In this document: positions 3,001 through 63,938 of the stretch, in pieces
Layout: each line of letters starts with the position of its first letter
Numbering within the stretch: the first letter of the stretch is position 1
Virus record (IMG/VR): IMGVR_UViG_3300037418_003161
Location: 44,420-108,419 of that record
DNA length: 64,000 nucleotides
Source: a virus
Lineage: Duplodnaviria; Heunggongvirae; Uroviricota; Caudoviricetes
Direction: 5' to 3' (one strand)
Program-made: the position numbers and the translations under genes
The notes under the pieces: model-generated
What the model was told of the DNA's origin: nothing
The model's input: the letters and a program-made list of their open reading frames with translations, nothing else
The model's database searches: none

Positions 3001-6000
3001 ATTGGCAATATCATCACAGTTTACATACAATCGGTATGGGTCGCCAGTTTCAAATGGCGTACCATTATAAATTCTTAAAAGCAAGTCTTGTGGAACGGAA
3101 CAGTCCGTCATGGGCGTTGCCCCGGAAAGAACCGCAAAAAGGTTGCAATCATGGCAAGCAGTATCCTTGTGGACAACAAATCCCAAAGCCACATCGGAGG
3201 CCGAACAATCGGTATAACCATACTTGTATGTTTTAAAACGAATCTTGGTTACACCGCTTACAGAATAAATCTCGTAATCCAACTTCTTTTTTTGTTGTAC
3301 CGACCTTGGGTCAACGCACAAAGTAACCCCCGATAGGGTTGAACCCGTAGTCCCGAATTCAACGGTATTGAACAACAAGGTATTTTCAATATAGGTTGTC
3401 CCTGTAAAGCCGCACCCCGGAACAGTTTCTTCGGTGTTGATTTTGTTAATCAACGCCTCAATTTCATTCAACCACCCGCTTTCAAACGTGCTGTCATCAA
3501 AAGACATGTAGGTGGTGTAATTACAATACAGGGGCAATCCAGAGCCATAGCTTGGTAAAAAACCACAGGCATCGGGCTTGGTATAGCCGGAAAACAAATT
3601 CAATGTTGCCCCGCTCCCCAAATATTCACTCGTTCCCAAATCCAATAAGGGCTGAACGGTCAGACCGGAAAGAATACACAATCCCCTTGGGTGTTCTTTT
3701 ATGGTAAGGGCCACCTCGTCTTCAACCACGCTTGCAAAGGTTTCGGGGAACAAGTTTTGTATAAATTCTTTCACCTTACAGGTATCCTTGTAGCGAAACT
3801 TGTTGCGATGGAAGATAGAGTTTTCGGTACGGTTGCCTCCTGACCACAAAGTGGTGGCCGGGATGAACTGCTCTACAAGCCGAATCCAAAACGGGGAAAT
3901 GGATTTGATGTAGCCTTCCAGTTTTTGATAGGTATAGGCACTGGTCTCCCCCACATAGCTCACATATTGCTTGTAAATGTTGTACAAGTCCAAATACTTT
4001 TTTATGTATTTGATTTTGTTGATGTCCCGGATGCCTTCACTAATAACTTGGTTGGCAAATTCAGCAAAGGTAATTCCACTGGTGGTGGTTAAATTTCCAA
4101 AACCAACATTGTGAATGTTGGACTGCCGCCATACATCAAAGGCGATGGCTTTGGCTGACGACAGGTATAGGTCAATGTTTTTTACATTCAGCGTCAACTT
4201 GGCATCTTCCCAATCCTCAATGGTGGTGGATTTTTTATTGTCCACCTTCTTGTTCAAGTCAAAACCAAAGTTCAATAAAGGAAACCTTCTCAGTCTATCC
4301 AGATAGGGTTGACCGTAGGTGAATTCCTTGAGGCGTGTTTTAATTACTTTGGTTGAGCCTGTCAATACCGATTTGGTCAGGTCAAGCACTTCTTCGCCTT
4401 TGTGTTCGGTGGTGCGCTCAAACCAACCCGCTCCTTTTTGGAAATAATACTCCGAATTAAAGGTAGCCTTGGTGGGATAACCTTGCTCGTCGATGGGAAA
4501 ATCTTCTCGCTCGTAACTATGGGCCACTTGCTTTTGGGTCACGTTGTATAACCCGTTACTGAATGCTACGGTGGTTTGGGTGTAGGTGCTGTCTTTTAAG
4601 ACTTCATCTAGGCGTTGGTTGACATATTCCATATTCAACGGGGCAGTCACCATATAAACGTGTTCGTTGAATTCATAAAGACTTTCGGGTGCGCCAATGA
4701 ACTTCATTAAAAATTCAATGGGTTTGCGTGTTCCCTTGGCTTTAAACAAATGAGCCACATTAACCAAGAGTCGGCGGTAGAGTTCCACATCGGCTTCGGC
4801 AATGGATTTCGCCTTGGCTTCCCCGGCTAGGGAGGAATCCTTGGTCTTATAAAGCAATTTATTAAGTTCTTCTTCGGTGTAGTGAGTGATGCTTTCCAAT
4901 CCAAGGGTGTCACAAAGATTTTTGAGCAAAAGGTCGGGAACATTGTTGATTTTGTCATAGGTCACGTTCCGCATGTAGGCAATGTTGTCAATAAAATTTT
5001 TGATATTGTCAAACTCATGCCCATAGACCTTTAAAATGCTGTCCACCTTGAACTCCGGGGTATCAAACTCCTGTAAGGAAGAGGTAATTAAAAACCGGGT
5101 AATTAAATTGGATTTGTATTCATCAATGGCCTCTGCAATTTCATTAATCTTGTTAATGTAGGTGGTATACTGGCTTGTCTTAATATCCAAGTTATACCCA
5201 TCCACCACATTCCATGTGGCTGTTTCAATTTCAAAGAACGTCCCGGTTTCCATCTCCTTTGGTACTTTAAAGGAAGTTTGGTAAATGGGGTGTGCTTCCC
5301 GGTTCAAAAGAATGTTTTCCACCACATCAAGGTTGAAGAAATAATCCTCAATTAATTGGTATTGGGGTTTGATTAAAAAGTTTTGGCTTGAGCCGGAAAT
5401 AAAGGGCCGTCCCTCTACGGTCAGGACGAGGGGTGCGGTAGCTGTAGTGGGGGGTGTATAATTTAAAATATTATAAGATACGCCGGACACTTCCACAGCA
5501 TAGCGAGAATAGGTTTTGGTGAAGTTGCGCAGTTCTGAAAACGCCTCATCGGTGGGTAGGATTGCACCCATGCTGCTGTATTCAATATCAAAGTCATTTT
5601 TTAAGGCTGACTGTGGCACAGAAAACCGGGTGCGTTTCAGGGTGGCATCATACGTTACCCCGGAAGCGGTAATCCCACTCAAGTTGGAGGCAATGTCCTT
5701 GGATACCACCATTGCTGCCGGAAAGGTTTTGATAATATGTTCAATACCCACCCGCAAACGTTCCTTGAGTGAGCCAAACAGAGAAACATAGGAAGCATCG
5801 CTTTTATCCTTATTAAAGGTAACAAGTGACGCATTCCTTTTTTGTTGGACTTCCTGTACTTTGATAGGGTCAAGGTCGTCTAAGGAAATGGGTTTGGAGA
5901 AATCGGTGGTGATGAAATGTCTGTCGTCCTTTTCCGGGGTTACACTATTGAACAAGAAATTTTCTTGTGTCATTTGTGGAGACCCGGTGGTTATCTGATT

Positions 6001-10900: not shown

Positions 10901-13900
10901 GTCTTTCTGTAGTGGTAAGTTGTCTTGTATAAGCAAGAATTTCATACATTTCTCCTGACAAAAAATTGGCAGTACTTGTAGAAGTTCCATTATATCCAAC
11001 AGTCATTTTTATTTGTGAGGCTCTTAAAATATTATATGTGGTTGTACCGCTTCCTGAAAATATTCCATTTTCATATCCTATACCAACTTTATTAGCTGAA
11101 TTCCATGTAAACGAAAACACAGAAGGCAGTGAAGACATGGCCGCACCTGTATACATAGCATTCCCGGCTTCACTTTGCCCAAGCGCATTACCCGTAGTAG
11201 TTGCAATAGAAAATGTTTTACTTGTTGGGCTGTTTAAGGCTAAATTCCATCCATTTATTGGTGAACCCGGATTTGGAAGTGTGTTATAATCTTCCCCATA
11301 ACCCATTACGGAAGTACCAACGTAAAATATGGTTAAACTTGCTCCTGTATAAGAAGGGAAAATGTCAGTTGTGGCCCTCAGACCTTGTGTACTAGAACTA
11401 ACAAATTTTATATATGGATATCCATTAGTACCACCCGACGATACGTAAGTAGGTTGTGCGGATGTACCAGTTAGTGGAATGGCATTAGCCGTTTGGTCAA
11501 CCCATTGTGTCACATTACTACCCGAAGTTGTAACCCCGGCATCACTCTTATACCAAGAACCTAAATTGGCAATGGACGTTGGGTCAAATCCATTAGTGGG
11601 TGTTACAGTTGGTGTCACTGTAGTTGTAGGTGTATTAGTTGGGGTGATGGATGTCGTTGGAGTATTGGTAGGTGTACTGGTAGATGTAGCCGTCTTGGTT
11701 GGTGTGACACTACTGGTAGGTGTAGAGGTGCTTGTATTGGTTGGTGTATTCGTTGGAGTGACTGTAGAAGTTGATGTTTGCGTAGGTGTATTCGTTGGGG
11801 TCAATGTAGGTGTTGGTGTGGAAGTTGATGTTGCAGTCTTTGTTGGTGTTATACTACTTGTTGGGGTAGCAGTGGGTGTTTGCGTAGGCGAGTTCGATTG
11901 TTGAATGTCAGGGGCAGGAGTTTGAGAGGGTGTAACAGTTGGTGTAGCTGTTGCTGTAGGAGTTTGGGTTAATTGAATACAATTTACTTTAACTGTAAAA
12001 GTAAAGCCGCTATTAAGAATAGAACTTGGTGTGACCGTCTGAGTAGGGGTACTTGTTGGTGTCGAAGTCAATGTGTTTGTAGGGGTATTGGTTGGAGTTT
12101 TGGTTGGCGTTGCTGTATTTGTTGAAGTACTGGTTGGCGTATTAGTGGCCGTGGATGATGGGGTAACTGTGCTTGTCGATGTTCGAGTAGGTGTATTGGT
12201 TGGTGTCACAGTATTAGTCGGTGTTACTGTAGATGTTAATGTCGATGTAGGTGTATTGGTTGGTGTAGTTGAGGGTGTTAAAGTTTGAGTGGGCGTACTT
12301 GTAGGTGTGTTCGTGGGGGTTACGGAAGCGGTAGGTGTATTGGTAGGCGTTACTGTATTTGTAGGAGTATTAGTTGATGTAGCAGTCCGTGTTGGGGTCA
12401 AACTTGCTGTTGGTGTATTAGTGGGGGTGGAGGTACTTGTGGATGTGACTGTATTAGATGGGGTAATGCTTGGTGTAACCGTACTTGTTGGGGTATTGGT
12501 TGCTGTGGTCGTTTTTGTTGGTGTATTAGTTGTGGTGGGAGTATTACTTGGTGTTACGGTATTGGTTGGTGTGAGCGTAGAGGTTGGTGTATTCGTTGGT
12601 GTAGATGTCCTAGTGGGTGTATTGGTTGAAGTAGGTGTATTGGTTGGTGTGAGCGTAGAGGTTGGTGTATTCGTTGGAGTGTTTGTTTGAGTTGGAGTGG
12701 CTGTAGCGGTAGATGTGGCCGTCTTGGTCGGTGTGTTGGAAGGTGTCAATGTAGGTGTGGCTGTAGCAGTGGCAGTAGGTGTAGGTGAAGGAGCGATTTT
12801 AGTTGTATTGGACTGCTGAATAATCATAGCATTGATAGCACCTTGTGAACCTGACGTAACATTACAATATACAAAGATGTCACCGTTACCATTGGGTTGA
12901 ATATCATTCACCCATCTTAGAGCAGCATCGTCATAGGCATTTCCTGTATTATCCCCATAGTTGTTGCCCGATGTAACGCTTGATGTTGTTGTACCGTTGA
13001 CAGTAAACGTCATTACCGTACCGTAGAAGCTTTGGTTATTGGATAAAAATCCGATTTGGTAATATTTGGATGTATTAAGCCCGGTTATCTTAAATGAGGA
13101 AGGGGTAGTGGCATCTGTTACCCATTCCTGTTGAACAATGATATCGGGGAAAACGCTTGTTCCATTTCCGCTTGAGGGGGATGAACCATCAGCACCATCA
13201 AATGGGTTAAGGGTCTTAAATCCAATAGAAGTTGATGCATCATTAATATCCCTCAAGAAATTTCTTGTGTATCCACTTGCAGTTGTAATATCTGTACCAT
13301 TAGATGGTAATCCTTGCCATCCAGAAGTATTGCCAGAACTGATGAACTGGTTGGTAAACGCCAATTGCCAAGTTTCTTCTACCACATAACTTCCCGAACT
13401 CGGTGTGAGAGTCGGTGTCTGAGTGGATGTTCCGGTGTTTGTAGGTGTAACACTACTTGTAGGTGTATTGGTTGGTGTATTTGTGGAAGTGCTTGTAGCT
13501 GTTTTGGTAGGTGTGAGGGTACTTGTTGGCGTATTTGTGGCCGTGGCAGTATTGGTAGGTGTCAGGGTTGGAGTAACAGTATTTGTGGGTGTATTGGTAG
13601 CGGTTGGAGTTTTGGTGGGGGTAACAGAACTGGTAGGAGTACTGGTTGGGGTATTGGTAGCGGTTTGGGATATGGTGGGAGTAATCGTTGGTGTGGCAGT
13701 TGTAGTGGGTGTAGGTGTGGGGGTAACAGCCGGGGTGGTGTCTTTTTGAACATTGGCCAAAATCCTTGAAGCGTAGATGTTAACGTTGTTGGTGGTGGCC
13801 TTTACATCCAAATTTTGGGCTGTGGGCATGGTCATTCCACTTGATACCACAACACTGCTTGTCATTGACAATTGTGAACCTGAAATTTGCGTTCCGCTTG

Positions 13901-15317
13901 CGGTATCCAATTCCACCACTGATGTTCCAATCACACTACATTCCGCTTGGTGTAAATAGGTATTGGTTACACCGCTCCATTCAGTATCATCCCATTTGGT
14001 AAGGAAGTTTTGCAACCCTGTTCCGCTTGGTATAAGAGTATTGGCAACCAAATATTGTTCTTGCAGTTTGGTAATTTCGACTGGATTAATCCAATACATT
14101 ACATCATTTGTTGAATTGGCATTCCAACCAGTATTAAAATAAGATTCATTACCACTTGTTACATCAGAACCATTTCTATAAACATTAATAAAATTACTAG
14201 AATTTCCAACCACACAATCTAAAGCAATACAATAGTTTGTACCGTTTGTAAGAGTTGTACTTCCTGAAAAATTAAATACATAAACTTTTGGGGTGGTAGA
14301 AATTGTTGAAACATCTATGCTTGTGGAAGCAATTATTAACGGTGAACCCGGAACTGATGATGTACCAAATGTACCACTATGTGGATATAATTTTGCTGTG
14401 ATATTTCCAGTTGGTGTACCATTTCTGGACAACATAAAAGCAGCAGATGTAAGGGTTGCACCATTACCTGTAAAACTTTGTGCTAATCCTGTTTTACCAC
14501 CTATAAACAAAGATTGTACAGTATTATCAGTTACAGCATTGAAATTGTCACCACTTAAAGTTTGGTCTACAATAATATTGGCACAGTAAATATCGTAGGT
14601 AAACATGTTGTTACCTATTAATGCTGCAATACGATAGGTTCTTCCATTGGTTGGTGTAAATCCAACCTTTACCTTTGTAGTTGAAGTGGCCACTCCCCCG
14701 GCTACAATGGTTACTTTGTCAGTCCAACTACTCAAACTACCGTTATCTTCCTGTAACGTAATGGTTACAGAAGTCATGTTACTGGAAATAACATAAGCAA
14801 CGGCAGCATAAAAGGTTGAACTCCCATCCCAAACGGAACTATCATATTTCCAATATTTAGGGTTATTAAGCGGTGCAGATGTGGTATTGGTTTTTCCCGT
14901 TTCCCGGTTTCCAATTTCAATTTGAGTCTCCGAAGCTGTTAATATATCAGTTCCGGTGTCTTGAATTATAATAAGCCTTGCCGCCTTAATACTTAATTGA
15001 CCGTTAGATGTGGTAGTATCCAACATAAGTCGGTCATACACCTCAACAGTACTAGTTGTTACGGATTGTCTGAATAAAGTATAGGTAGAAGTTCCGGCAC
15101 TAATGATAACAGAATTCGTGGAATTCCCTACACCATCAGCAATATATACCTTTTTATTGGTTGAGTCTGAGTTGGTAGCAAGTACTTCCAAATAAACACT
15201 TATTGACCCTGAATACTTGCTGCTACTAAAACTATACAACTCTGTTGTACGTACATTAGAAGCGGAAAGACTACTGGTAGTACCATTCAATAAGTTTATT
15301 TCATGTCTAAGAACCAT
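7968..15317 (-). CDS. 2449-aa multidomain fibre/adhesin: PT-rich linkers, LamG/ConA-like domain, three NIDO-like repeats, one Bacteroidota-type beta-sandwich domain
   Basis: [36 protein letters not shown] (LamG-like, about 10860-11590). Three copies of LPFxFxxY..NG..LP..PLWD..GTAPNR..E.RL.E..ATIGIQN (about 8645-10600). No signal peptide. Confidence 0.8.
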
Positions 15318-40696: not shown

Positions 40697-42088
40697 TTAT
40701 TTTTTATTTTGATTTTGCTGTTCGTTAAATAAAGCGGCTTCCCTTATGCGGCTTTGTCTGCGCTTCATTTCTTGCGCTTCTTTATCCACTTCAAAACCAA
40801 GGAAAGTGCTGCACGACTCGGTGTCTATTCTTAAGTACTCGTTATCGAACGTACAATTGTTAAACACCAACCCATCTGGCCCTATGCGGGATTTGGTGAT
40901 TGCCATGGTTGCCAGTTTGTTTTCTTTTTGGTTGAGGGTCTTGGCAATGGTGATGATAACGTGGCCCACTTGTGCTTTTTTAATTGAACCTCCCATTTGG
41001 TCGGTTGTGACCACATCCGATGCAATGGAACTGCGGTTTCCTTGGGTAGCGACCCATGTAGCTACATCCAATTCATGACCCATCGCTTCAATTTGGCGCA
41101 TCAGTGTACCCTCGTTCACCCAATCTTCTCCACCTGAAATAATACAGTCAACATAGTCAATAATGATAAGGTCGATTTTACCTACTTCAGCAATTACTTT
41201 TAGGATACGGCTTTTTAAATCCGCAAACGTGTAGGTCTCAGAGGGGTATTTACGCAAAATGAGCTTACCAGTACACTTGGCTTTGAACTCTTCAAGTATG
41301 GCTTTTATTCGCTCTACCTGATTGCCTTGGTCATTAGGAGAAATACCTGTAATTCCGCATATATGTTTACGTTGGATTTGTTTCTTTTTATCCTCAAAAA
41401 AGATATGCAGTACATTGTACCCCAACTTGTATGCAGTATTGGCAAACTTGGTAGTAATGGTTGATTTTCCCACACCAGTTGGCGCAAGGATAACACCTAA
41501 TTCTCCTTTACCCAATCCCCCACTGAGTGGGTCATCCAAACCTTTTATGCCTGTGGGTATAGGGTGTCTGAAATCCGGGCTGAGAACTTCATCCAAATCA
41601 TCAAAAACGTCCTTGGTGTCCTCATCATCCTGAACACCCACTTGCAGGGCCTCCCGGATGAGTTCTTCTGCCTTGTCGTAGTTTTCAAAGTCACCCTTCT
41701 TAATCATGGTGTCCACCTTTTTGATGGCTTTGTGCAACTCCTGTTGTTTACAGAATTTAAGGGCTTTTTCTTTGATGAAGGAGCTTTCCCCGGCTTCAAT
41801 TTCAAGGGCTTTAACCTCCTTTAAAACGTCCATTACGTATTGACGTGCCATGTCGGATTTGATGTCGCTCACCACCAACATATCCAACGAATCGAAAGTG
41901 GGAATGGAGTCGTATTTTTCAGCGAATTCTTTAATCAGTTGAACGATGAGGCGGTAGTAATCGTTGTCGAAATACTTAGAATTTATGGTGTGTATTATCG
42001 AGTGTGAAAACTTCTTGTCGGTAATCAGTAAGTAGAGTAGAGAAATTTGAAATTTGTGTCCTAGATATCCAAAATTTTTGTCACTCAT
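40697..42088 (-). CDS. dnaB: Replicative helicase (DnaB / T4 gp41 family)
   Basis: IPTGIKGLDDPLSGGLGKGEL; Walker A APTGVGKS; IIIDYVD; ATQGNR; KSRIG. Confidence 0.92.
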   Translation of the reverse strand: MSDKNFGYLGHKFQISLLYLLITDKKFSHSIIHTINSKYFDNDYYRLIVQLIKEFAEKYDSIPTFDSLDMLVVSDIKSDMARQYVMDVLKEVKALEIEAGESSFIKEKALKFCKQQELHKAIKKVDTMIKKGDFENYDKAEELIREALQVGVQDDEDTKDVFDDLDEVLSPDFRHPIPTGIKGLDDPLSGGLGKGELGVILAPTGVGKSTITTKFANTAYKLGYNVLHIFFEDKKKQIQRKHICGITGISPNDQGNQVERIKAILEEFKAKCTGKLILRKYPSETYTFADLKSRILKVIAEVGKIDLIIIDYVDCIISGGEDWVNEGTLMRQIEAMGHELDVATWVATQGNRSSIASDVVTTDQMGGSIKKAQVGHVIITIAKTLNQKENKLATMAITKSRIGPDGLVFNNCTFDNEYLRIDTESCSTFLGFEVDKEAQEMKRRQSRIREAALFNEQQNQNKK

Positions 42089-42134
42089 TTTTTCATAGGG
42101 ATTAAATGTAAAAAATAAATATGCTCAATGGGGC

Positions 42135-42575
42135 TTAAAGTGCCACCCCATTGAACTCAGTTTCATAGACATCCTGCGACAATGTGTCAGAAATTTTGGT
42201 TAGAATATTTCTAATTTCAGGACGTACATCTACCGTGTATCGTACCTTGGGAGGATAAATGCTTGCCGGGAATTGTCTAGCGATAATCACGTCATCGCCC
42301 AACCGAACTTGCATTGTGAAGTACTCCGAAGTGGGAACTGTAGTTTGGTCAGGTGAGTTGCCCAAAAATTTTTCATTTTCAAATAAAAACTCACTGGATT
42401 TTTTCTTCAAATCAGCCTGAATATCATTGGCTATATCTTGAATGGTTTCATACAAATCAAGCGACCTTCTTACTTTGGGATTGTATCCTTTCACGTTAAA
42501 AAACCGTTGGCACACAATGTTGTTTTCCAGAGTAATTAAAAATTCAAACTTGGTTGTTGCATCTGCTTTTTTCAT
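42135..42575 (-). CDS. Conserved hypothetical protein in the replication operon (146 aa, MKKADAT)
   Basis: ATG at 42575 avoids overlap with the upstream gene; the track start at 42659 is unlikely. Confidence 0.7.
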   Translation of the reverse strand: MKKADATTKFEFLITLENNIVCQRFFNVKGYNPKVRRSLDLYETIQDIANDIQADLKKKSSEFLFENEKFLGNSPDQTTVPTSEYFTMQVRLGDDVIIARQFPASIYPPKVRYTVDVRPEIRNILTKISDTLSQDVYETEFNGVAL

Positions 42576-42586
42576 AGGGTAATTGA

Positions 42587-43594
42587 TTAATTGTTGTTTT
42601 TGTAAAATTGTTTTTCTTTCCGAGCCAGTTGCAGCAGCGGAGCCAAATAGTCTATCCAACCATCATTGATGCGGGGTAAATAGTTGAACAGCCCATCTTC
42701 CTTCATCATGCGCAACAGGTTCTTCCATCCCCGGTCTTCGGGGTCGAGTGGTACGGTAATAATTTGAACTATGTCTGATTTTGCTTGTTCGGTCAAGTGG
42801 GGATTCGATAAATCCACCAATTTTTTATTTATATCAAAGAAAGATTCTCCCAACACACCATGTTTGGTGACACCATTTACTAAATGAACTATGGTTTTGC
42901 TTGGCTTTGAACTACAAGCCAAACTTTCGGCTATCGGCCAAATGTCTTGGAGGGTGGTGGGATTCTCCCCAATTAAAGGAAAGTGTTTTATAAGCGTTTT
43001 TAGACCCATTCCTTTGATTCCTGCCACGTTATCGCTTTCATCGCCGCAAATCGTTTTTACAAGGCTCACATTACACGGTGGAATGGTTATTCCATCTATG
43101 TTCACCTTATCGTTGTGGGTGATAAACTGAGATTGGCGGGGTAGGTAGACCTTCACCCTTTCATTGATAAGTTGGGTTACATCGATGTCCCCGGAAAACA
43201 CGGTGATGTATTCTTCTGCTGCATTGGCGCAATAAAACGCAATGCAATCGTCCGATTCTACGTTTTCATATTCACCCTGCCGGACGAAGAGTTCTTCCAA
43301 GTATTGTTTTATGCGTAGTTTTTGATAGGCACTTGACGCTTCGTCTTCTTCAGATTTGTATCTATCCCGCCTATTTTCTTTATAGGTAGGATAGATAGCT
43401 CTTCTGAGGGAATCGTTGTTTTCTCCATCCCAAAACACAACAATTTTATCATATTGAAATTCTTCCAAATGCTTTTTGAGGGTATGGATGAAATGGAACA
43501 ATCCACCGATATGTTGTCCTTGGTAATAATAGTCTTTAACCCCAAACAATCCAATCTTGAATAGATTGTCTCCATCAATAATCAAAGTTTTCAT
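42587..43594 (-). CDS. 5'-3' exonuclease / RNase H (Pol I N-terminal, T4 Rnh-like)
   Basis: LIIDGDN; VFWDG; R..IYPTYKENR; ESDDCIA; SGDID..QL; GDESDNVAGIKGMGLKT. Confidence 0.92.
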   Translation of the reverse strand: MKTLIIDGDNLFKIGLFGVKDYYYQGQHIGGLFHFIHTLKKHLEEFQYDKIVVFWDGENNDSLRRAIYPTYKENRRDRYKSEEDEASSAYQKLRIKQYLEELFVRQGEYENVESDDCIAFYCANAAEEYITVFSGDIDVTQLINERVKVYLPRQSQFITHNDKVNIDGITIPPCNVSLVKTICGDESDNVAGIKGMGLKTLIKHFPLIGENPTTLQDIWPIAESLACSSKPSKTIVHLVNGVTKHGVLGESFFDINKKLVDLSNPHLTEQAKSDIVQIITVPLDPEDRGWKNLLRMMKEDGLFNYLPRINDGWIDYLAPLLQLARKEKQFYKNNN

Positions 43595-43632
43595 AGCATA
43601 CACATGATTGTTTTATGGAGAACAACCAAACC

Positions 43633-44688
43633 TTAGTCCATGTCTTCTGTTTCGATATCTGTTACAATGTCTTCTTCTGCAAATTCTACCTCATCTCCCA
43701 AGAGGGCTTCATCGTCACCACCAATTCGCATGATGTCAGCCCAATATTCCGCATACTGGCTTTTGTATGATTTAATTGCTTCAGGATTATCATCAATAAA
43801 ACCGTGTGGAACGGCTATGATGCTACTATCCGCATATCCCAAACCGTGAACGTGATTTTTAACCACCGTCACTTTTGTTCTGATACCGAAGTTGACCTTA
43901 CGCCCCTTGTGAACCAAGGAAATTTGGGATGTTCCGGCATGGGCCTGATTGCCGCAACGAATTACCAAGTTGGCCGACAAATAAATGGCCTGTCCACCCT
44001 TGGGCTGCATTGTGCCTTGTCCCATAACCGGGTTGTCGGGTAATCTGAACCATGGTTGGTTGATGATGATGGCCGTATTGCGGTACGGATAAGAAGCTTT
44101 GTTGGAAGCTTGGATTTTTTGTGCAATACTTTCACCCCATCTTTCTTTGATAACCCTTGCCGTATGCATTGTACCGCCTTTACCGTCATACGACATTTTA
44201 CACGGTACAGTACCCACAGAATCCCACAGGAATAACAAGTCATAGGGAATGTTTCCGGCTGCTTGTTCGTCCAAGAGTTCTTTGATGTAGTCAAAGATTT
44301 GTTCGATGTATTCAAACCCTAATTTATAGAGCATGAAGCCACCCCAATATTCCGACCCATCTTCTCTTATTTTCAATTCGCAATCCAACCCCATGTCTTT
44401 TGCGTGTTGGAAGGAGAACTTTTGTTCTGTGAAAAGAAATACTGGTAGGATGCCTCTTTTTTGGGCCGCTACTGCGGCAAGGCTTAAAATGGTGGTCTTA
44501 CCAGTGTTTGACCAACCAAGGATTTGTGTGATGCCACCCAAGGGAATTTGTACCCCGGAGGCTTTATAAAACGATTCACCGATGCTCAGCCATTCTTGGT
44601 CTTTGTATCTGTCGTTGCTTGAAAATTTTTCTTGTAATGCTTCGAAATTAAATTCTTTCTTTTTTGTTGCTTTTTTCTCTTTAGCCAT
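43633..44688 (-). CDS. recA: RecA/UvsX-like recombinase
   Basis: GGITQILGWSNTGKT; LFLWDSVG; IIINQ; GGQAI; KNHV; acidic tail. Confidence 0.88.
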   Translation of the reverse strand: MAKEKKATKKKEFNFEALQEKFSSNDRYKDQEWLSIGESFYKASGVQIPLGGITQILGWSNTGKTTILSLAAVAAQKRGILPVFLFTEQKFSFQHAKDMGLDCELKIREDGSEYWGGFMLYKLGFEYIEQIFDYIKELLDEQAAGNIPYDLLFLWDSVGTVPCKMSYDGKGGTMHTARVIKERWGESIAQKIQASNKASYPYRNTAIIINQPWFRLPDNPVMGQGTMQPKGGQAIYLSANLVIRCGNQAHAGTSQISLVHKGRKVNFGIRTKVTVVKNHVHGLGYADSSIIAVPHGFIDDNPEAIKSYKSQYAEYWADIMRIGGDDEALLGDEVEFAEEDIVTDIETEDMD

Positions 44689-44710
44689 AAAATTTTTACC
44701 GAAATGGGAT

Positions 44711-44743
44711 TAAAAAACGGATAAGTGATTTATCCGTTTTTTA
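44711..44743. terminator. Intrinsic (bidirectional-type) terminator between the SSB and recA genes
   Basis: TAAAAAACGGATAA-GTGAT-TTATCCGTTTTTTA. Confidence 0.75.
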
Positions 44744-44759
44744 TGTGCTTATATTCTTA

Positions 44760-45641
44760 TTAGAATGGGAGGTCATCACTATCAGCATCGTAGGTTTCTG
44801 CCCCTACTTCCTCTTCATCTTCCTGTAAGAATTTTTGTGCGCTTGAGGTAGAAGAAAGTTCTAATGCTTCTTCTTCTTGATTGCCCCACACATACTTTTT
44901 CAGTTGGGTAGACCATTTTGGCTCGAAGCCATCGGCGACACCTTGCAAATAATCCAAGGGTTTTTTGCTGTACACGTCTTCCCAAGTGGATTCATCAGCC
45001 AACCATTCTTGCATGATTTCTGCATCAGCGTGTAGCGGAGAGGGGTCTTCGGGTAAGATGCTGCTAACAGCAGTGTAAGAAGACTTCTTATTAGGGGTTT
45101 CGGTTTTTACAAGGTTCAAAACCAAGTCCCGGCCAGTTTGTGCATCGGCAATATCACCCTTCTTTCTGTAGATAGGGATGATTTTATCCATCACACCATC
45201 ACCCTTCCATGCTTCTTTAAAGCGATAGAATTTGGGGCCGTGGGCTTCATTGGCTCGGTCAATCAATTTAACAATATAGAACTTTTTGGGTTTATATTGT
45301 TTGGCCAGTTCCTTATCCCCTTTTGCTAATAAATTTGCATGTGTTTCGTTTAGGGGTGAGGGTTTGCCTTCGTTCATTCCGGGGTCATACAACTTTACGT
45401 ATTTACCACCCAAGTATACTTCATGAAAATACACTTCTACAAAGGGTGAGCCGTCTTTTACTGGAAGGATTCGAACAGTGGCTTCGGCTGTTGTACCAAC
45501 CGGGGCTTTTTTGTCGATTTGAGGAGAGAAGTAGCGTTTGAGTCTTTCTTCTTCGGTTAACTTTGGTGTTTGTTTCGGACGTGTTGCTTCTTGCTTGTTC
45601 TTCTCATACTGAGCAAGAACAGCTTCTAAACTGTTACTCAT
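44760..45641 (-). CDS. Single-stranded DNA-binding protein (T4 gp32-like)
   Basis: VRILP..PF..YFH; TGRDL; acidic tail ending DDLPF. Confidence 0.85.
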   Translation of the reverse strand: MSNSLEAVLAQYEKNKQEATRPKQTPKLTEEERLKRYFSPQIDKKAPVGTTAEATVRILPVKDGSPFVEVYFHEVYLGGKYVKLYDPGMNEGKPSPLNETHANLLAKGDKELAKQYKPKKFYIVKLIDRANEAHGPKFYRFKEAWKGDGVMDKIIPIYRKKGDIADAQTGRDLVLNLVKTETPNKKSSYTAVSSILPEDPSPLHADAEIMQEWLADESTWEDVYSKKPLDYLQGVADGFEPKWSTQLKKYVWGNQEEEALELSSTSSAQKFLQEDEEEVGAETYDADSDDLPF

Positions 45642-59832: not shown

Positions 59833-59858
59833 AAAAAACCCCGGAAATTCCGGGGTTT
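59833..59858 (-). terminator. Intrinsic terminator
   Basis: AAACCCCGGA/TCCGGGGTTT stem with a T run on the minus strand. Confidence 0.8.
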
Positions 59859-60568: not shown

Positions 60569-60640
60569 TAACTTTGTTTCAACGTCAATTTTTGATTTAT
60601 CTTTGTTTTAATTTTTTTTTAAATTCTTTCTCTATCTTTG
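60569..60640 (+). promoter_or_regulatory. Three tandem TAnnTTTG boxes upstream of the initiator-like gene
   Basis: TAACTTTG at 60569, TATCTTTG at 60598 (TTTG 21 nt upstream) and TATCTTTG at 60633. Confidence 0.7.
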
Positions 60641-60684: not shown

Positions 60685-62208
60685 ATGGATGATAAAAACT
60701 TAGATTGGTTCCAGTTTTCCCCTAACAAATTCTATTTTGGGTCATTGGAACTTCCCCCACACATAGTAGGAATATATATAAGATTACTTTGTCAGGAATG
60801 GTTCAATGGGAGTATATCTTCCGAACTACCCGGCGTAGACGATACTCTGACGGTTACAGGTGAAATTTTATCGATTGACAATCCAACCGGGGGTTCAACC
60901 CCCCTTGGTGCAAATTACAACACAAACAAAAATAGTGTAATAAAAATCAAACTCAACCGTGAAGCCTTGTGGGAGGTTCTGAAAAATAAATTCGAACAGC
61001 AGGAAAATGGTAGGTATATCAATAAACCCTTGGAAGAGGAGAGAGCCAAAACTGTAAAACGCATTGAAAAACAATTACTTGATGTGGAAAATGGGCGAAG
61101 AGGGGGCCAAAAAAGTGCAGTCAAACGTAAGGTTTTACAGGAGCTATTTCCAACCCCCGGTTCAACCCCCCCTTCAAGCGGGGGTTCAAGCCACCCTTCA
61201 ACCCCCGGTTCAACCGAGGGTGCAACCCCCCTGCCAAGCCGGGTTCAACCTATTACATTACATTACATTAGTAATATAAACTACCCACTAGATTTTCCAA
61301 ATGTGGATAAAAATGTGGATAACTCAAATATCCTCCAAAGTAAGATTACAGAAATTCTTAATACAAACCTTGATGACCTCCTACTTGCGGGAAATTTAAT
61401 TTCAAGGCCCGGAAACTTCGTAAAATTTGCGGTTGAGTATTGGGCCAAGGAAATTATCGCAAAGGGGCAGGATGCGCCTCTAAATCGCTTAAGAGAGCAT
61501 TTCGTGGACACCATGAACACCCGACTTTCTGAAATTGAACGGGCCTACACCAAATTGGAACATTCGGAAGAATGGTTCACACAAGAATTGGAGCGACTCA
61601 AAACCCCGGAGATGACTCCCCGGTTTTTGAAAAAGTTTAAGGATTACTACCTCAAAAAAATGGCATCTGGCAGTTTTTACTTTCAAACTTTTCCTAATTT
61701 CTCAATGGAGAAGACTTTGACCGATTGGTTCATCAACGAACGCAAACCCAAACCCACTCGTCAACCGATGCAGCCAGTTTATGCAGTTGAACCCACGCCA
61801 ACATACAAACCAACAGATGAAGAAAAAAAGAAATTTGACGATGATATCAAAGAAATGCTTAATGGGTATTACCAAACCTATCTAAAACAAGGGGAGACCC
61901 GGTATTTGCAGATTACCCACTATGAATTTCTCCGGGAGTTTGGGTGTGACGTTGCCAGTGAATCAGAAGTGAGGGATATGCTAATGACCCAAGTGTTTAA
62001 CGAGCGGAAAAAGAAAATTGAAGTCACCGAAGAAGGTTTTAACGAAGAGGGTACACGAAGACTCAAAACCCTGAAACAGCAATACGCCACAAATAGCTTG
62101 GATGATGATGAAAAACACAAAATCCTCAAAACTGCCTACGTCCGGGCCATCACCGATTTTTTTGAGAAATTAAAATCTCAAAACAAAGAAAAAATATTTG
62201 TATTTTAA
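60685..62208 (+). CDS. Putative replication initiator (DUF1376/YdaU-like N terminus), 507 aa
   Basis: WFQFSPNKF..L..GIYIRLLC.EW..G.I..KF..NG...N..L.EE..NG.RGG.KS, followed by a repeat-encoded linker. Confidence 0.65.
   Translation: MDDKNLDWFQFSPNKFYFGSLELPPHIVGIYIRLLCQEWFNGSISSELPGVDDTLTVTGEILSIDNPTGGSTPLGANYNTNKNSVIKIKLNREALWEVLKNKFEQQENGRYINKPLEEERAKTVKRIEKQLLDVENGRRGGQKSAVKRKVLQELFPTPGSTPPSSGGSSHPSTPGSTEGATPLPSRVQPITLHYISNINYPLDFPNVDKNVDNSNILQSKITEILNTNLDDLLLAGNLISRPGNFVKFAVEYWAKEIIAKGQDAPLNRLREHFVDTMNTRLSEIERAYTKLEHSEEWFTQELERLKTPEMTPRFLKKFKDYYLKKMASGSFYFQTFPNFSMEKTLTDWFINERKPKPTRQPMQPVYAVEPTPTYKPTDEEKKKFDDDIKEMLNGYYQTYLKQGETRYLQITHYEFLREFGCDVASESEVRDMLMTQVFNERKKKIEVTEEGFNEEGTRRLKTLKQQYATNSLDDDEKHKILKTAYVRAITDFFEKLKSQNKEKIFVF
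61150..61250 (+). repeat. Eight 12-bp tandem iteron-like repeats centred on GGTTCAACC/CCTTCAAGC
   Basis: CCAACCCCCGGT TCAACCCCCCCT TCAAGCGGGGGT TCAAGCCACCCT TCAACCCCCGGT TCAACCGAGGGT GCAACCCCCCTG CCAAGCCGGGTT; a further copy at 60883-60908. Confidence 0.85.
61302..61322 (-). promoter_or_regulatory. Two perfect DnaA boxes (TTATCCACA) in tandem
   Basis: TGTGGATAA at 61302-61310 and 61314-61322. Confidence 0.7.
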
Positions 62209-62638: not shown

Positions 62639-63418
62639 ATGAAAAAAAGCAACGGTGTTATCACCCTTATCTGTCTGTTAGGATTTGTATTCCAATCCTG
62701 TACCAAGGAATCGGTCAAACCAAATGACCTTCCGGCCAATCTAAATGAATTACGTTCGTTTGTAGCCACTTCTTTACACACCACCCCGGACAAGGTGGTA
62801 TACCAATCTCAAAACAAAGAGTTTGTGGCTAATGGAGATATGGTCGTTTCACTTGAAGATGCTCAGGCACGTTTGCAACAACCTTCTCCCGGCCCAATAA
62901 CCAATGGCAGGGAAGCCCAACGTATCTTTGTTTATAGGGTTAGTCCTGATAAAATTGTAGATGTGAAATTATATGTGGACGGTACGGTATCTCGGCAGTG
63001 GAGTAAAGCAATTGATAGTGCCATCACACACTGGAATGGTACGGGTAGTGCCTTTCATATTTCACGGCTCAATTCCGGCAAGGTTAAAAAAGGTCAATAT
63101 AACATTTTGGTCACAACCATGTACGAGGAAAGCAATGTAATAGCCAGAGGAGTGTTACCCAATGTTTATGGAGATGTGGGAAGTAGAATTAGCGTTAATA
63201 CCAAATACAATACCTTGGACTTCACAACAATGCAGTTTTGCACCACACATGAAATGGGACACACTATTGGGTTTTTACATACCGACCAAACAGCCGGAGA
63301 TTTAATTCCGGGAACACCTGAAAGCGACCCGGCATCGGTAATGAACTCATATGCCAATCCGTGGGTTGGGTTTTCGCCCTATGATATAATTGCGGTTCAG
63401 ACTATATATCCTAAATGA
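62639..63418 (+). CDS. Lipoprotein M57-family zinc metalloprotease
   Basis: Signal ending FQSC; AI.HWN; HEMGHTIGFLHTD; IPGTP..DPASVMN; FSPYDIIAVQTIYP. Confidence 0.85.
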   Translation: MKKSNGVITLICLLGFVFQSCTKESVKPNDLPANLNELRSFVATSLHTTPDKVVYQSQNKEFVANGDMVVSLEDAQARLQQPSPGPITNGREAQRIFVYRVSPDKIVDVKLYVDGTVSRQWSKAIDSAITHWNGTGSAFHISRLNSGKVKKGQYNILVTTMYEESNVIARGVLPNVYGDVGSRISVNTKYNTLDFTTMQFCTTHEMGHTIGFLHTDQTAGDLIPGTPESDPASVMNSYANPWVGFSPYDIIAVQTIYPK

Positions 63419-63822: not shown

Positions 63823-63850
63823 AAAGAAAACCCCGGAATCTCCGGGGTTT
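63821..63850. terminator. Terminator between the convergent ORF and tRNA
   Basis: AAACCCCGGA-ATC-TCCGGGGTTT with TCTTTTT on the minus side. Confidence 0.78.
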
Positions 63851-63851
63851 G

Positions 63852-63938
63852 TGATACCTACGAGGTTCGAACTCGTATAAACCTTATGAGGGCTTTCAGT
63901 TTTAGGGACTGCTACTCTACCAATTGAGTTACGGTATC
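63852..63938 (-). tRNA. tRNA with CUA (amber-suppressor) anticodon and long variable arm; no encoded CCA
   Basis: GATACCG TA ACTC-AATTGGTA-GAGT A GCAGT-CCCTAAA-ACTGA AAGCCCTCATAAGGTTTAT ACGAG-TTCGAAC-CTCGT AGGTATC A. TATCTTTG box at 63958-63951, 12 nt upstream. Confidence 0.85.

Follow-up and report, generated by a model that had tools for sequence, protein, structure and literature searches.

How huge phages start replication is, to our knowledge, largely open. The question is raised by one gene in a stretch of 64,000 nucleotides (the window; positions 44,420 to 108,419 of the IMG/VR record IMGVR_UViG_3300037418_003161), which holds iteron-like repeats, an AT-rich tract and DnaA boxes inside its own reading frame. 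We give a probability of about 0.6 to the reading that this gene carries the dedicated lytic origin of the phage in its linker and that its product recruits the phage replisome. By homology, the product is an initiator homologue joined to a DnaC-like loader tail, likely the remnant of a temperate-phage operon. No description of such a jumbo-phage origin, with DnaA boxes or iterons, was found in print, and the supplements of PMC7162821 may bear on its novelty. According to the available part of that study, about 30% of huge-phage genomes have a GC skew of bidirectional replication, and DnaA is unmentioned (0 occurrences) in its main text.

The phage and the setting of the gene

The contig is linear, 236,419 bp long and about 73% complete, and the source phage is a giant T4-like myovirus from soil whose closest relatives also have the gene. 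Matches to Pfam and PHROG comprise a T4-type head and tail set (Gp23 capsid, T4 portal, terminase and sheath) and a replication set of family B polymerase, DnaB-like helicase, primase, UvsX-like recombinase and gp32-like SSB, and profile scans added SbcC and RuvC homologues. These matches, from capsid, portal, terminase and sheath to UvsX, SSB and polymerase, place the phage among the T4-like myoviruses and bear out the preliminary description, which had given it a gp32/UvsX/helicase replisome. The minus-strand replisome block in Table 1 is likely the machinery that the fused protein recruits. The Pfam scan took in 146 of the 233 ORFs, among which no clamp was matched. A gp59 loader had zero matches in the contig, as it also had in the controls of the same search, and no IstB/DnaC-type loader or loader-ATPase profile matched there; a separate loader or helicase gene directly downstream of the fused gene is absent, and the fused tail is all that stands in that place. 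ParA, ParB (AAA_31, ParB_N) and an integrase were not found in the contig at its completeness of about 73%, nor was a Rep_3 initiator, by a search that detected 3 of 14 controls. Plasmid-like maintenance, which had been proposed as one role of the locus, is therefore unsupported in a contig of this completeness.

The gene starts a short plus-strand block and diverges from a long minus-strand block. The divergent gap holds three TAnnTTTG motifs, and this motif, which we take to be the Bacteroidota housekeeping promoter consensus, occurs within 150 bp upstream of 33 of the 233 ORFs; the three are likely host-type promoters of Bacteroidota. A scan for sigma-70 promoters gave 10 matches against 9.5 expected, which is chance level. 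Near-identical AAACCCCGGAA..TCCGGGGTTT hairpins flank the block with the fused gene and are likely bidirectional terminators. Two genes downstream there is a lipoprotein-like M57 metallopeptidase, and a tRNA gene with the anticodon CTA, amber suppressor-like, lies apart from the main tRNA clusters. Amber recoding across the genome was ruled out, because TAG still terminates 11 of 148 long ORFs, and the frames are open in genetic code table 11.

Table 1. Features of the locus, in positions of the window
Feature	Position	Strand	Basis
Replisome block: DnaB-like helicase, 5'-3' exonuclease, UvsX-like recombinase, gp32-like SSB	40697..45641	-	profile matches
AAACCCCGGAA..TCCGGGGTTT hairpins	59836-59858 and 63823-63850
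Three TAnnTTTG motifs (60569, 60598, 60633) in the divergent intergenic gap	60569..60640	+	motif scan
Fused initiator / loader-tail gene, 507 aa	60685..62208	+	ORF call, four full-length orthologues at 39-56% identity
N domain (aa 1-155), DUF1376-like, with insertion of ~30 aa and long C-terminal helix	60685..61149	+	profiles, model
Isolated copy of the palindromic repeat, which encodes part of the N-domain insertion	60883..60908	.	repeat scan
Single consensus, imperfect DnaA-box-like 9-mer TGTGGAAAA	61083-61091	-	motif scan
Iteron-like array with 12-bp period and core SSTTCAASC; encodes a P/G/S/T linker	61148..61250	.	repeat scan, recoding test
AT-rich tract with ATTAC x3, predicted unwinding element	61251..61280	.	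composition
Two perfect DnaA boxes TGTGGATAA (61302-61310, 61314-61322) from one 12-bp tandem duplication	61299..61322	-	motif scan
Middle domain (aa ~206-349), C-terminal domain common to phage initiators with differing N domains	61300..61731	+	profiles
Tail (aa ~366-507), homologous to the C-terminal extension found in DnaC-like loaders of ~350 aa; ATPase missing	61780..62208	+	HHalign
M57 metallopeptidase, lipoprotein-like	62639-63418	+	PF12388, E 6.5e-8
tRNA gene, anticodon CTA	63851-63938	-

Three parts of the protein

The whole protein matched nothing in Pfam or NCBIfam directly, and PHROGs gave it two weak 'primosomal protein' matches (E 0.008 and 0.03). A profile of the gene with three orthologues, searched against 1.84 billion representatives, split the protein into three parts. 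Residues 1-155 align with DUF1376 proteins in two pieces around the insertion, and 103 of the 117 rows of the N-domain alignment match PF07120. Moreover, a profile of 87 DUF1376 relatives scores the query at 95.8 bits, a partly circular figure as the relatives were self-chosen, and Atlas features match DUF1376 clusters (0.93, with 178 of 256 in common). The AlphaFold2 model of the N domain has a pLDDT of 90.7, and its top Foldseek match among viral models is a DUF1376 phage protein (E 2.6e-4). DUF1376 homology is thus found by profile and by fold, though neither the protein nor its N part nor any of three orthologues exceeds the Pfam gathering cut-off of PF07120. The best solved structural matches are mostly winged-helix proteins, namely ORC2 (Z 5.5, rmsd 3.4, 77 residues aligned), Cdc6-like proteins, IclR and DnaD (DnaD-NTD: Z 4.7, rmsd 4.5, 82 aligned), with weak scores, a Z of 4-5.5 falling within the range of common arrangements; Foldseek on the PDB with the same model returned nothing at E<=0.001. 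A comparison of the N domain with DUF1376 and lambda O-like winged-helix domains had been suggested as a check, and the domain is DUF1376-like by profile, Atlas and Foldseek and probably winged-helix by the model, at a Z of only 4-5.5. Sequence searches of the PDB gave P-loop or low-complexity matches only, and a full-length AlphaFold2 model built on 4 sequences was poor (pTM 0.31), with an empty PDB search. No function is given for DUF1376 in the available passage of the literature, and the family would gain a concrete setting from this locus.

The middle domain is joined, in its other carriers, to N parts of DUF1376, of Lin1244_N, or of the PHROG classes 'replication initiation protein' and 'replisome organizer'; for example, the N part of P0012 matches the former class at E 1e-35 and that of P0011 the latter at E 2e-44. 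Its profile had no match in a set of 4 or in one of 151 Bacteroidota genomes, and an Atlas search gave unnamed clusters only. The initiator-like character first ascribed to the gene is upheld by the lambdoid initiator anatomy and by this domain, which is common to annotated phage replication initiators. The C-terminal 140 residues, which come from a DnaC-like loader, were overlooked in that reading. The tail aligns with a family matching the PHROG 'DnaC-like helicase loader' (HHalign probability 99.5, E 7e-23); these relatives are P-loop proteins of about 350 residues, of which the tail region alone aligns. The Walker A motif GxxxxGK[ST] is present in none of the five fused proteins, and the product is therefore no AAA+ loader of the DnaC/IstB kind. 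In the available part of the survey in PMC4889955, initiation proteins of the DnaA/DnaC type occur mostly in viruses without their own helicase, so it is unusual to find a DnaC-type protein in a phage with a complete replisome. Among the most speculative parts of our reading is an ATP-independent link, made by the tail, between the origin and the phage helicase, which we put somewhat below even odds. The anatomy suggests an ATPase-free, single-chain initiator and loader.

Repeats, AT-rich tract and DnaA boxes in the linker

Counted by the 12-bp period, nine units make up the array between about 61148 and 61250, the last at a spacing of 11 bp; the eight 12-bp repeats reported before at this place are a fair count. 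A perfect TTCAA[CG]C core is present in six units and the exact GGTTCAACC in only three; hence the consensus is better given as SSTTCAASC, a hyphenated palindrome, than as the GGTT-C-AACC unit of the preliminary description, whose palindromic array is otherwise there. When the same peptide was recoded synonymously 20,000 times, no version attained six cores or the observed lag-12 identity, which argues that the repeat resides in the DNA, beyond what the P/G/S/T peptide alone requires. The isolated copy in the N-domain insertion is also present, and what had been called inverted is an imperfect palindrome with its core on the same strand as the array cores. By eye, the linker-repeat peptide also appears, much as in this isolated copy, as an insertion inside the N domain of the initiator relatives P0009, P0010, P0013, P0019 and P0016, and such insertions may be a putative second binding site across the family. 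An assembly check was made over four runs. Contigs from two of them, X3 (61123-61475) and X5 (61155-61422), run across array and boxes alike with 0 differences, while X4 covers the boxes only and X2 has no array coverage; array and boxes are therefore no assembly artefact, given the two of four runs that span them.

The orthologues keep this layout at the peptide level. All four linkers have two or three tripeptides compatible with the repeat, spaced 4 residues apart; an x[VL]QP unit comes next, ahead of an AT-compatible ITLH/ITVH motif, and repeat-compatible peptides are also found in the N insertions of P0004, where the core is reversed, and of P0009. Next to the array, the AT-rich stretch was confirmed as described, with 4 G/C in 30 nt and ATTAC three times. 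Such AT-richness is reached by only 0.8% of the 30-nt windows of the genome, and by synonymous recoding it is within what the peptide gives (P 0.18), with P 0.027 for the three ATTAC copies.

The DnaA boxes lie 21 bp from the AT-rich tract. The 236 kb hold 7 perfect boxes (3.6-7 expected), and no other two of them are within 10 nt of each other. Both arose from a single perfect tandem duplication of 12 bp and hence count as one event, not as two independent ones; a figure of 0.009 for the pair presumes two independent boxes. The chance of a single perfect box is P about 0.003 within a given 100 bp, and P 0.097 once the peptide is fixed. The two perfect boxes 12 bp apart are thus present as reported, but as a pair they are weaker than was stated, being a single duplication whose peptide NVDKNVDN is absent in all four orthologues. 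Directly behind the AT tract, P0002 and P0003 carry NYPQ, which a perfect box could encode, and P0008 carries NYSQ, which a consensus box could encode, so that three of the four may have a box nearby; the background is about 2% per 25 residues for a perfect-box peptide, and the orthologues share ancestry. The query has NYPL at this position and its own boxes about 17 bp downstream in the opposite orientation, and the linker of P0004 has no box-compatible peptide. These peptides hint at box turnover among orthologues that share ancestry and of which P0004 has none. The single TGTGGAAAA site may be a chance occurrence, consensus sites of its kind numbering 32 in 236 kb. In 2 of 4 Bacteroidota genomes searched there are dense intergenic TTATCCACA clusters, some at 11-12-bp spacing, which makes the 9-mer plausible for the host phylum.

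On these grounds the assistance of DnaA in opening, in the lineage of the source phage, stands at about even odds and belongs to the most speculative parts of the account. The competing view for this step, that initiator and origin are real and DnaA is uninvolved, a chance box having been doubled by slippage, is nearly as credible. It agrees with the single 12-bp duplication, with the P of 0.097 given the peptide and with the lack of a perfect box in all 25 genes that precede related loaders in Bacteroidota (pro)phages, and is opposed by the P of about 0.003 in a given 100 bp and by the NYPQ and NYSQ peptides against their 2% background, common ancestry considered. The host-DnaA-assisted iteron origin first proposed keeps its iterons, AT tract, boxes and initiator anatomy, with a less telling pair of boxes. 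In a further alternative, the fused protein and DnaA would load the DnaB replisome of the host, either during the first rounds or to sustain a carrier state like that of a plasmid. Here, as in P1-type origins, the AT tract has the repeats on one side and the boxes on the other, the TTATCCACA clusters fit a host with such sites, and the ancestral module presumably loaded a host helicase. Yet helicase, primase and polymerase are all encoded by the phage itself, the boxes in their present form are specific to its lineage, and ParA, ParB, integrase, Rep_3 and an IstB-type loader were all without a match in the ~73%-complete contig, and we consider this alternative improbable.

Compared with known systems, the locus is closest to the lambdoid modules. 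In lambda the origin lies inside O, with palindromic iterons and an adjacent AT tract, and iteron plasmid origins are assisted by DnaA (available part of PMC5043065). Shared with lambda O/P and the lambdoid modules described there are the candidate origin within a gene, with palindromic repeats and then an AT-rich tract in the flexible linker of an initiator, and the initiator adjoining a loader in the unfused relatives. The source phage differs from lambda in its DUF1376-like N domain with an insertion of about 30 residues, in units of 12 bp, out of helical phase, as against 19-bp iterons, in a loader that is a fused tail without ATPase, in its DnaA boxes, and in being a giant T4-like myovirus with its own replisome. 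With iteron plasmids (P1 oriR, F ori2, RK2, pSC101 and R6K gamma in the same part of PMC5043065) it has iterons, AT tract and DnaA boxes together, but it is without Rep_3, no partition genes were found, and its repeats are palindromic cores at a 12-bp period inside a gene, not helically phased direct repeats. The gene would act like a lambdoid initiator module, although it lacks a separate loader and stays below the DUF1376 cut-off, and it does not belong to the Rep_3 replicons. In T4, initiation at oriF and oriG goes through R-loops, and oriE has 12-nt direct repeats and RepEB; the role of these 'iterons' is undefined, and DnaA is unmentioned (0 occurrences), in the available part of PMC3016281. 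The statement that T4-type phages use R-loop and recombination-dependent initiation is accordingly right for T4, with the qualification that oriE has 12-nt repeats, so repeats alone are not foreign to such phages (PMC3016281, same part). The T4-type head, the helicase/UvsX/gp32-like replisome, the 12-nt repeats and the switch in transcription direction are alike in both phages, whereas the repeats of the source phage lie in a lambdoid-type initiator gene.

At fourfold sites no GC-skew signal was seen over the contig, and the whole-genome GC skew suggested as a check gave none at the gene; the raw cumulative skew appears to be dominated by Thr/Pro-rich genes. The skew of T against A at these sites, the other of the two skews tried, was tested on a presumed genome of 324 kb; it switches best near 100 kb with a plateau at 84-116 kb, and the gene lies at 105.1-106.6 kb. 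Would-be leading genes are alike on both sides (-0.094 and -0.098) and lagging genes are at -0.21, the T excess being on the would-be lagging strand and the left side resting on 3 plus-strand genes. The switch has a z of about 3.2, robust to the expression proxy, with a block-permutation P of 0.003-0.015 at the gene site and about 0.05 with a free switch point, and gives weak support to an origin near the gene.

The exact GGTTCAACC occurs 14 times in the contig against 3-5 expected, and the ten sites outside the fused gene (contig 33116, 38418, 43256, 47756, 80634, 113232, 155840, 164760, 200026 and 201657) are possible, putative secondary binding sites. Their excess would suit a repurposed DNA-binding regulator or replisome accessory, such as a gp59-like loader, with repeats that are autoregulatory or an inherited linker, and so would the loss of the loader ATPase, the missing GC skew and the failure to match gp59, although the control of the last search was uninformative. 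Nine of the ten outside sites are isolated and within called ORFs, the array is intact far beyond coding need, and repeat-compatible peptides are kept in orthologues at 39-56% identity, so a purely regulatory or accessory role seems quite unlikely to us.

History of the fusion and a possible mode of action

The closest unfused initiator, P0009, matches at E 1e-68 and has the same N insertion but no tail. P0009 and the best loader, P0015, are each found on one contig of 85,582 bp, likely the same one, and on this ground the fused gene is probably a collapsed lambdoid initiator-loader operon from a temperate phage, the simplest history being deletion of the ATPase from such an operon. In the wider loader family, 29 of 39 loci have a long ORF directly upstream, and of the 25 distinct ones (four duplicates dropped) 10 match Lin1244_N or DUF6291, which we take to be initiator families, and many hold linker repeats and AT tracts; the loaders of these 39 loci did not match the tail profile. 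In trees the five giant-phage middle domains form one group (81/95), and neither P0009 nor P0015 is placed as sister to the giant-phage domains. A metagenome locus matching P0015 was rejected as a false match to a restriction-type helicase. DNA of relatives was not found in viral contigs searched with the gene, its orthologues and the neighbouring baseplate gene, and relatives were found neither in the metagenome scan nor by tblastn of cultured phages.

The full-length orthologues are on contigs of 227, 390, 371 and 368 kb. The helicase of the phage has 7 close homologues at 69-79% identity, followed by a drop to 60% or less; four are on contigs above 100 kb, whose sizes equal those of the contigs with P0002, P0003, P0008 and P0006, and three on contigs of 3-6 kb. 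By these equal sizes, all four contigs above 100 kb in the tight helicase clade carry the fused gene. The contig of P0004 is absent from the best 120 helicase matches listed, and within the limits of the searches no full-length fusion was found among thousands of more distant helicase relatives. Since it tracks the helicase group of 7, the fused gene looks stable in one small clade. A relic or passenger, that is, a prophage fragment recently caught and without a role, would agree with the temperate-phage origin of both halves, but the same fusion with an open frame in five divergent giant-phage contigs (227-390 kb) and in one helicase clade makes it very improbable.

For the dedicated lytic origin that we prefer, we assume the following course of events. 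The fused gene would be expressed early from the host-type promoters, dimers of the product would bind the palindromic 12-bp units as for lambda O, and the protein would open 61251-61280, possibly with host DnaA, which may assist as in iteron plasmids. The middle domain and the tail would then bring in a helicase, more likely that of the phage itself, since the phage helicase is present and no loader ATPase was found, and bidirectional first rounds would give way to UvsX-dependent replication. In a more far-reaching version, one clade of T4-like soil phages (230-390 kb) turned a temperate-phage initiator-loader operon into a single protein that dropped the ATPase and brings the phage helicase to an origin inside its gene, where boxes have been made anew in other reading frames next to the unwinding element; this is unlikely as a whole; if true, the start of giant-phage replication would be gated by the host initiator. 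The locus offers a sequence-defined candidate origin of 1.7 kb with a candidate protein, which lends itself to minireplicon experiments and to assays of binding and melting, and it is a natural case in which to ask whether a lytic giant phage makes use of host DnaA.

Elsewhere on the contig, the phage encodes DnaJ-like (4458-5357, minus strand) and ClpB-like (196619-198646, plus strand) chaperones, and chaperones of these kinds remodel lambda and plasmid initiation complexes. In addition, there are inteins in an SNF2-type helicase (contig 131449-134202) and in the portal protein (182371-185754), a phage sigma-70 factor (13088-13927) and a phenylalanyl-tRNA synthetase-like gene (116814-117830).
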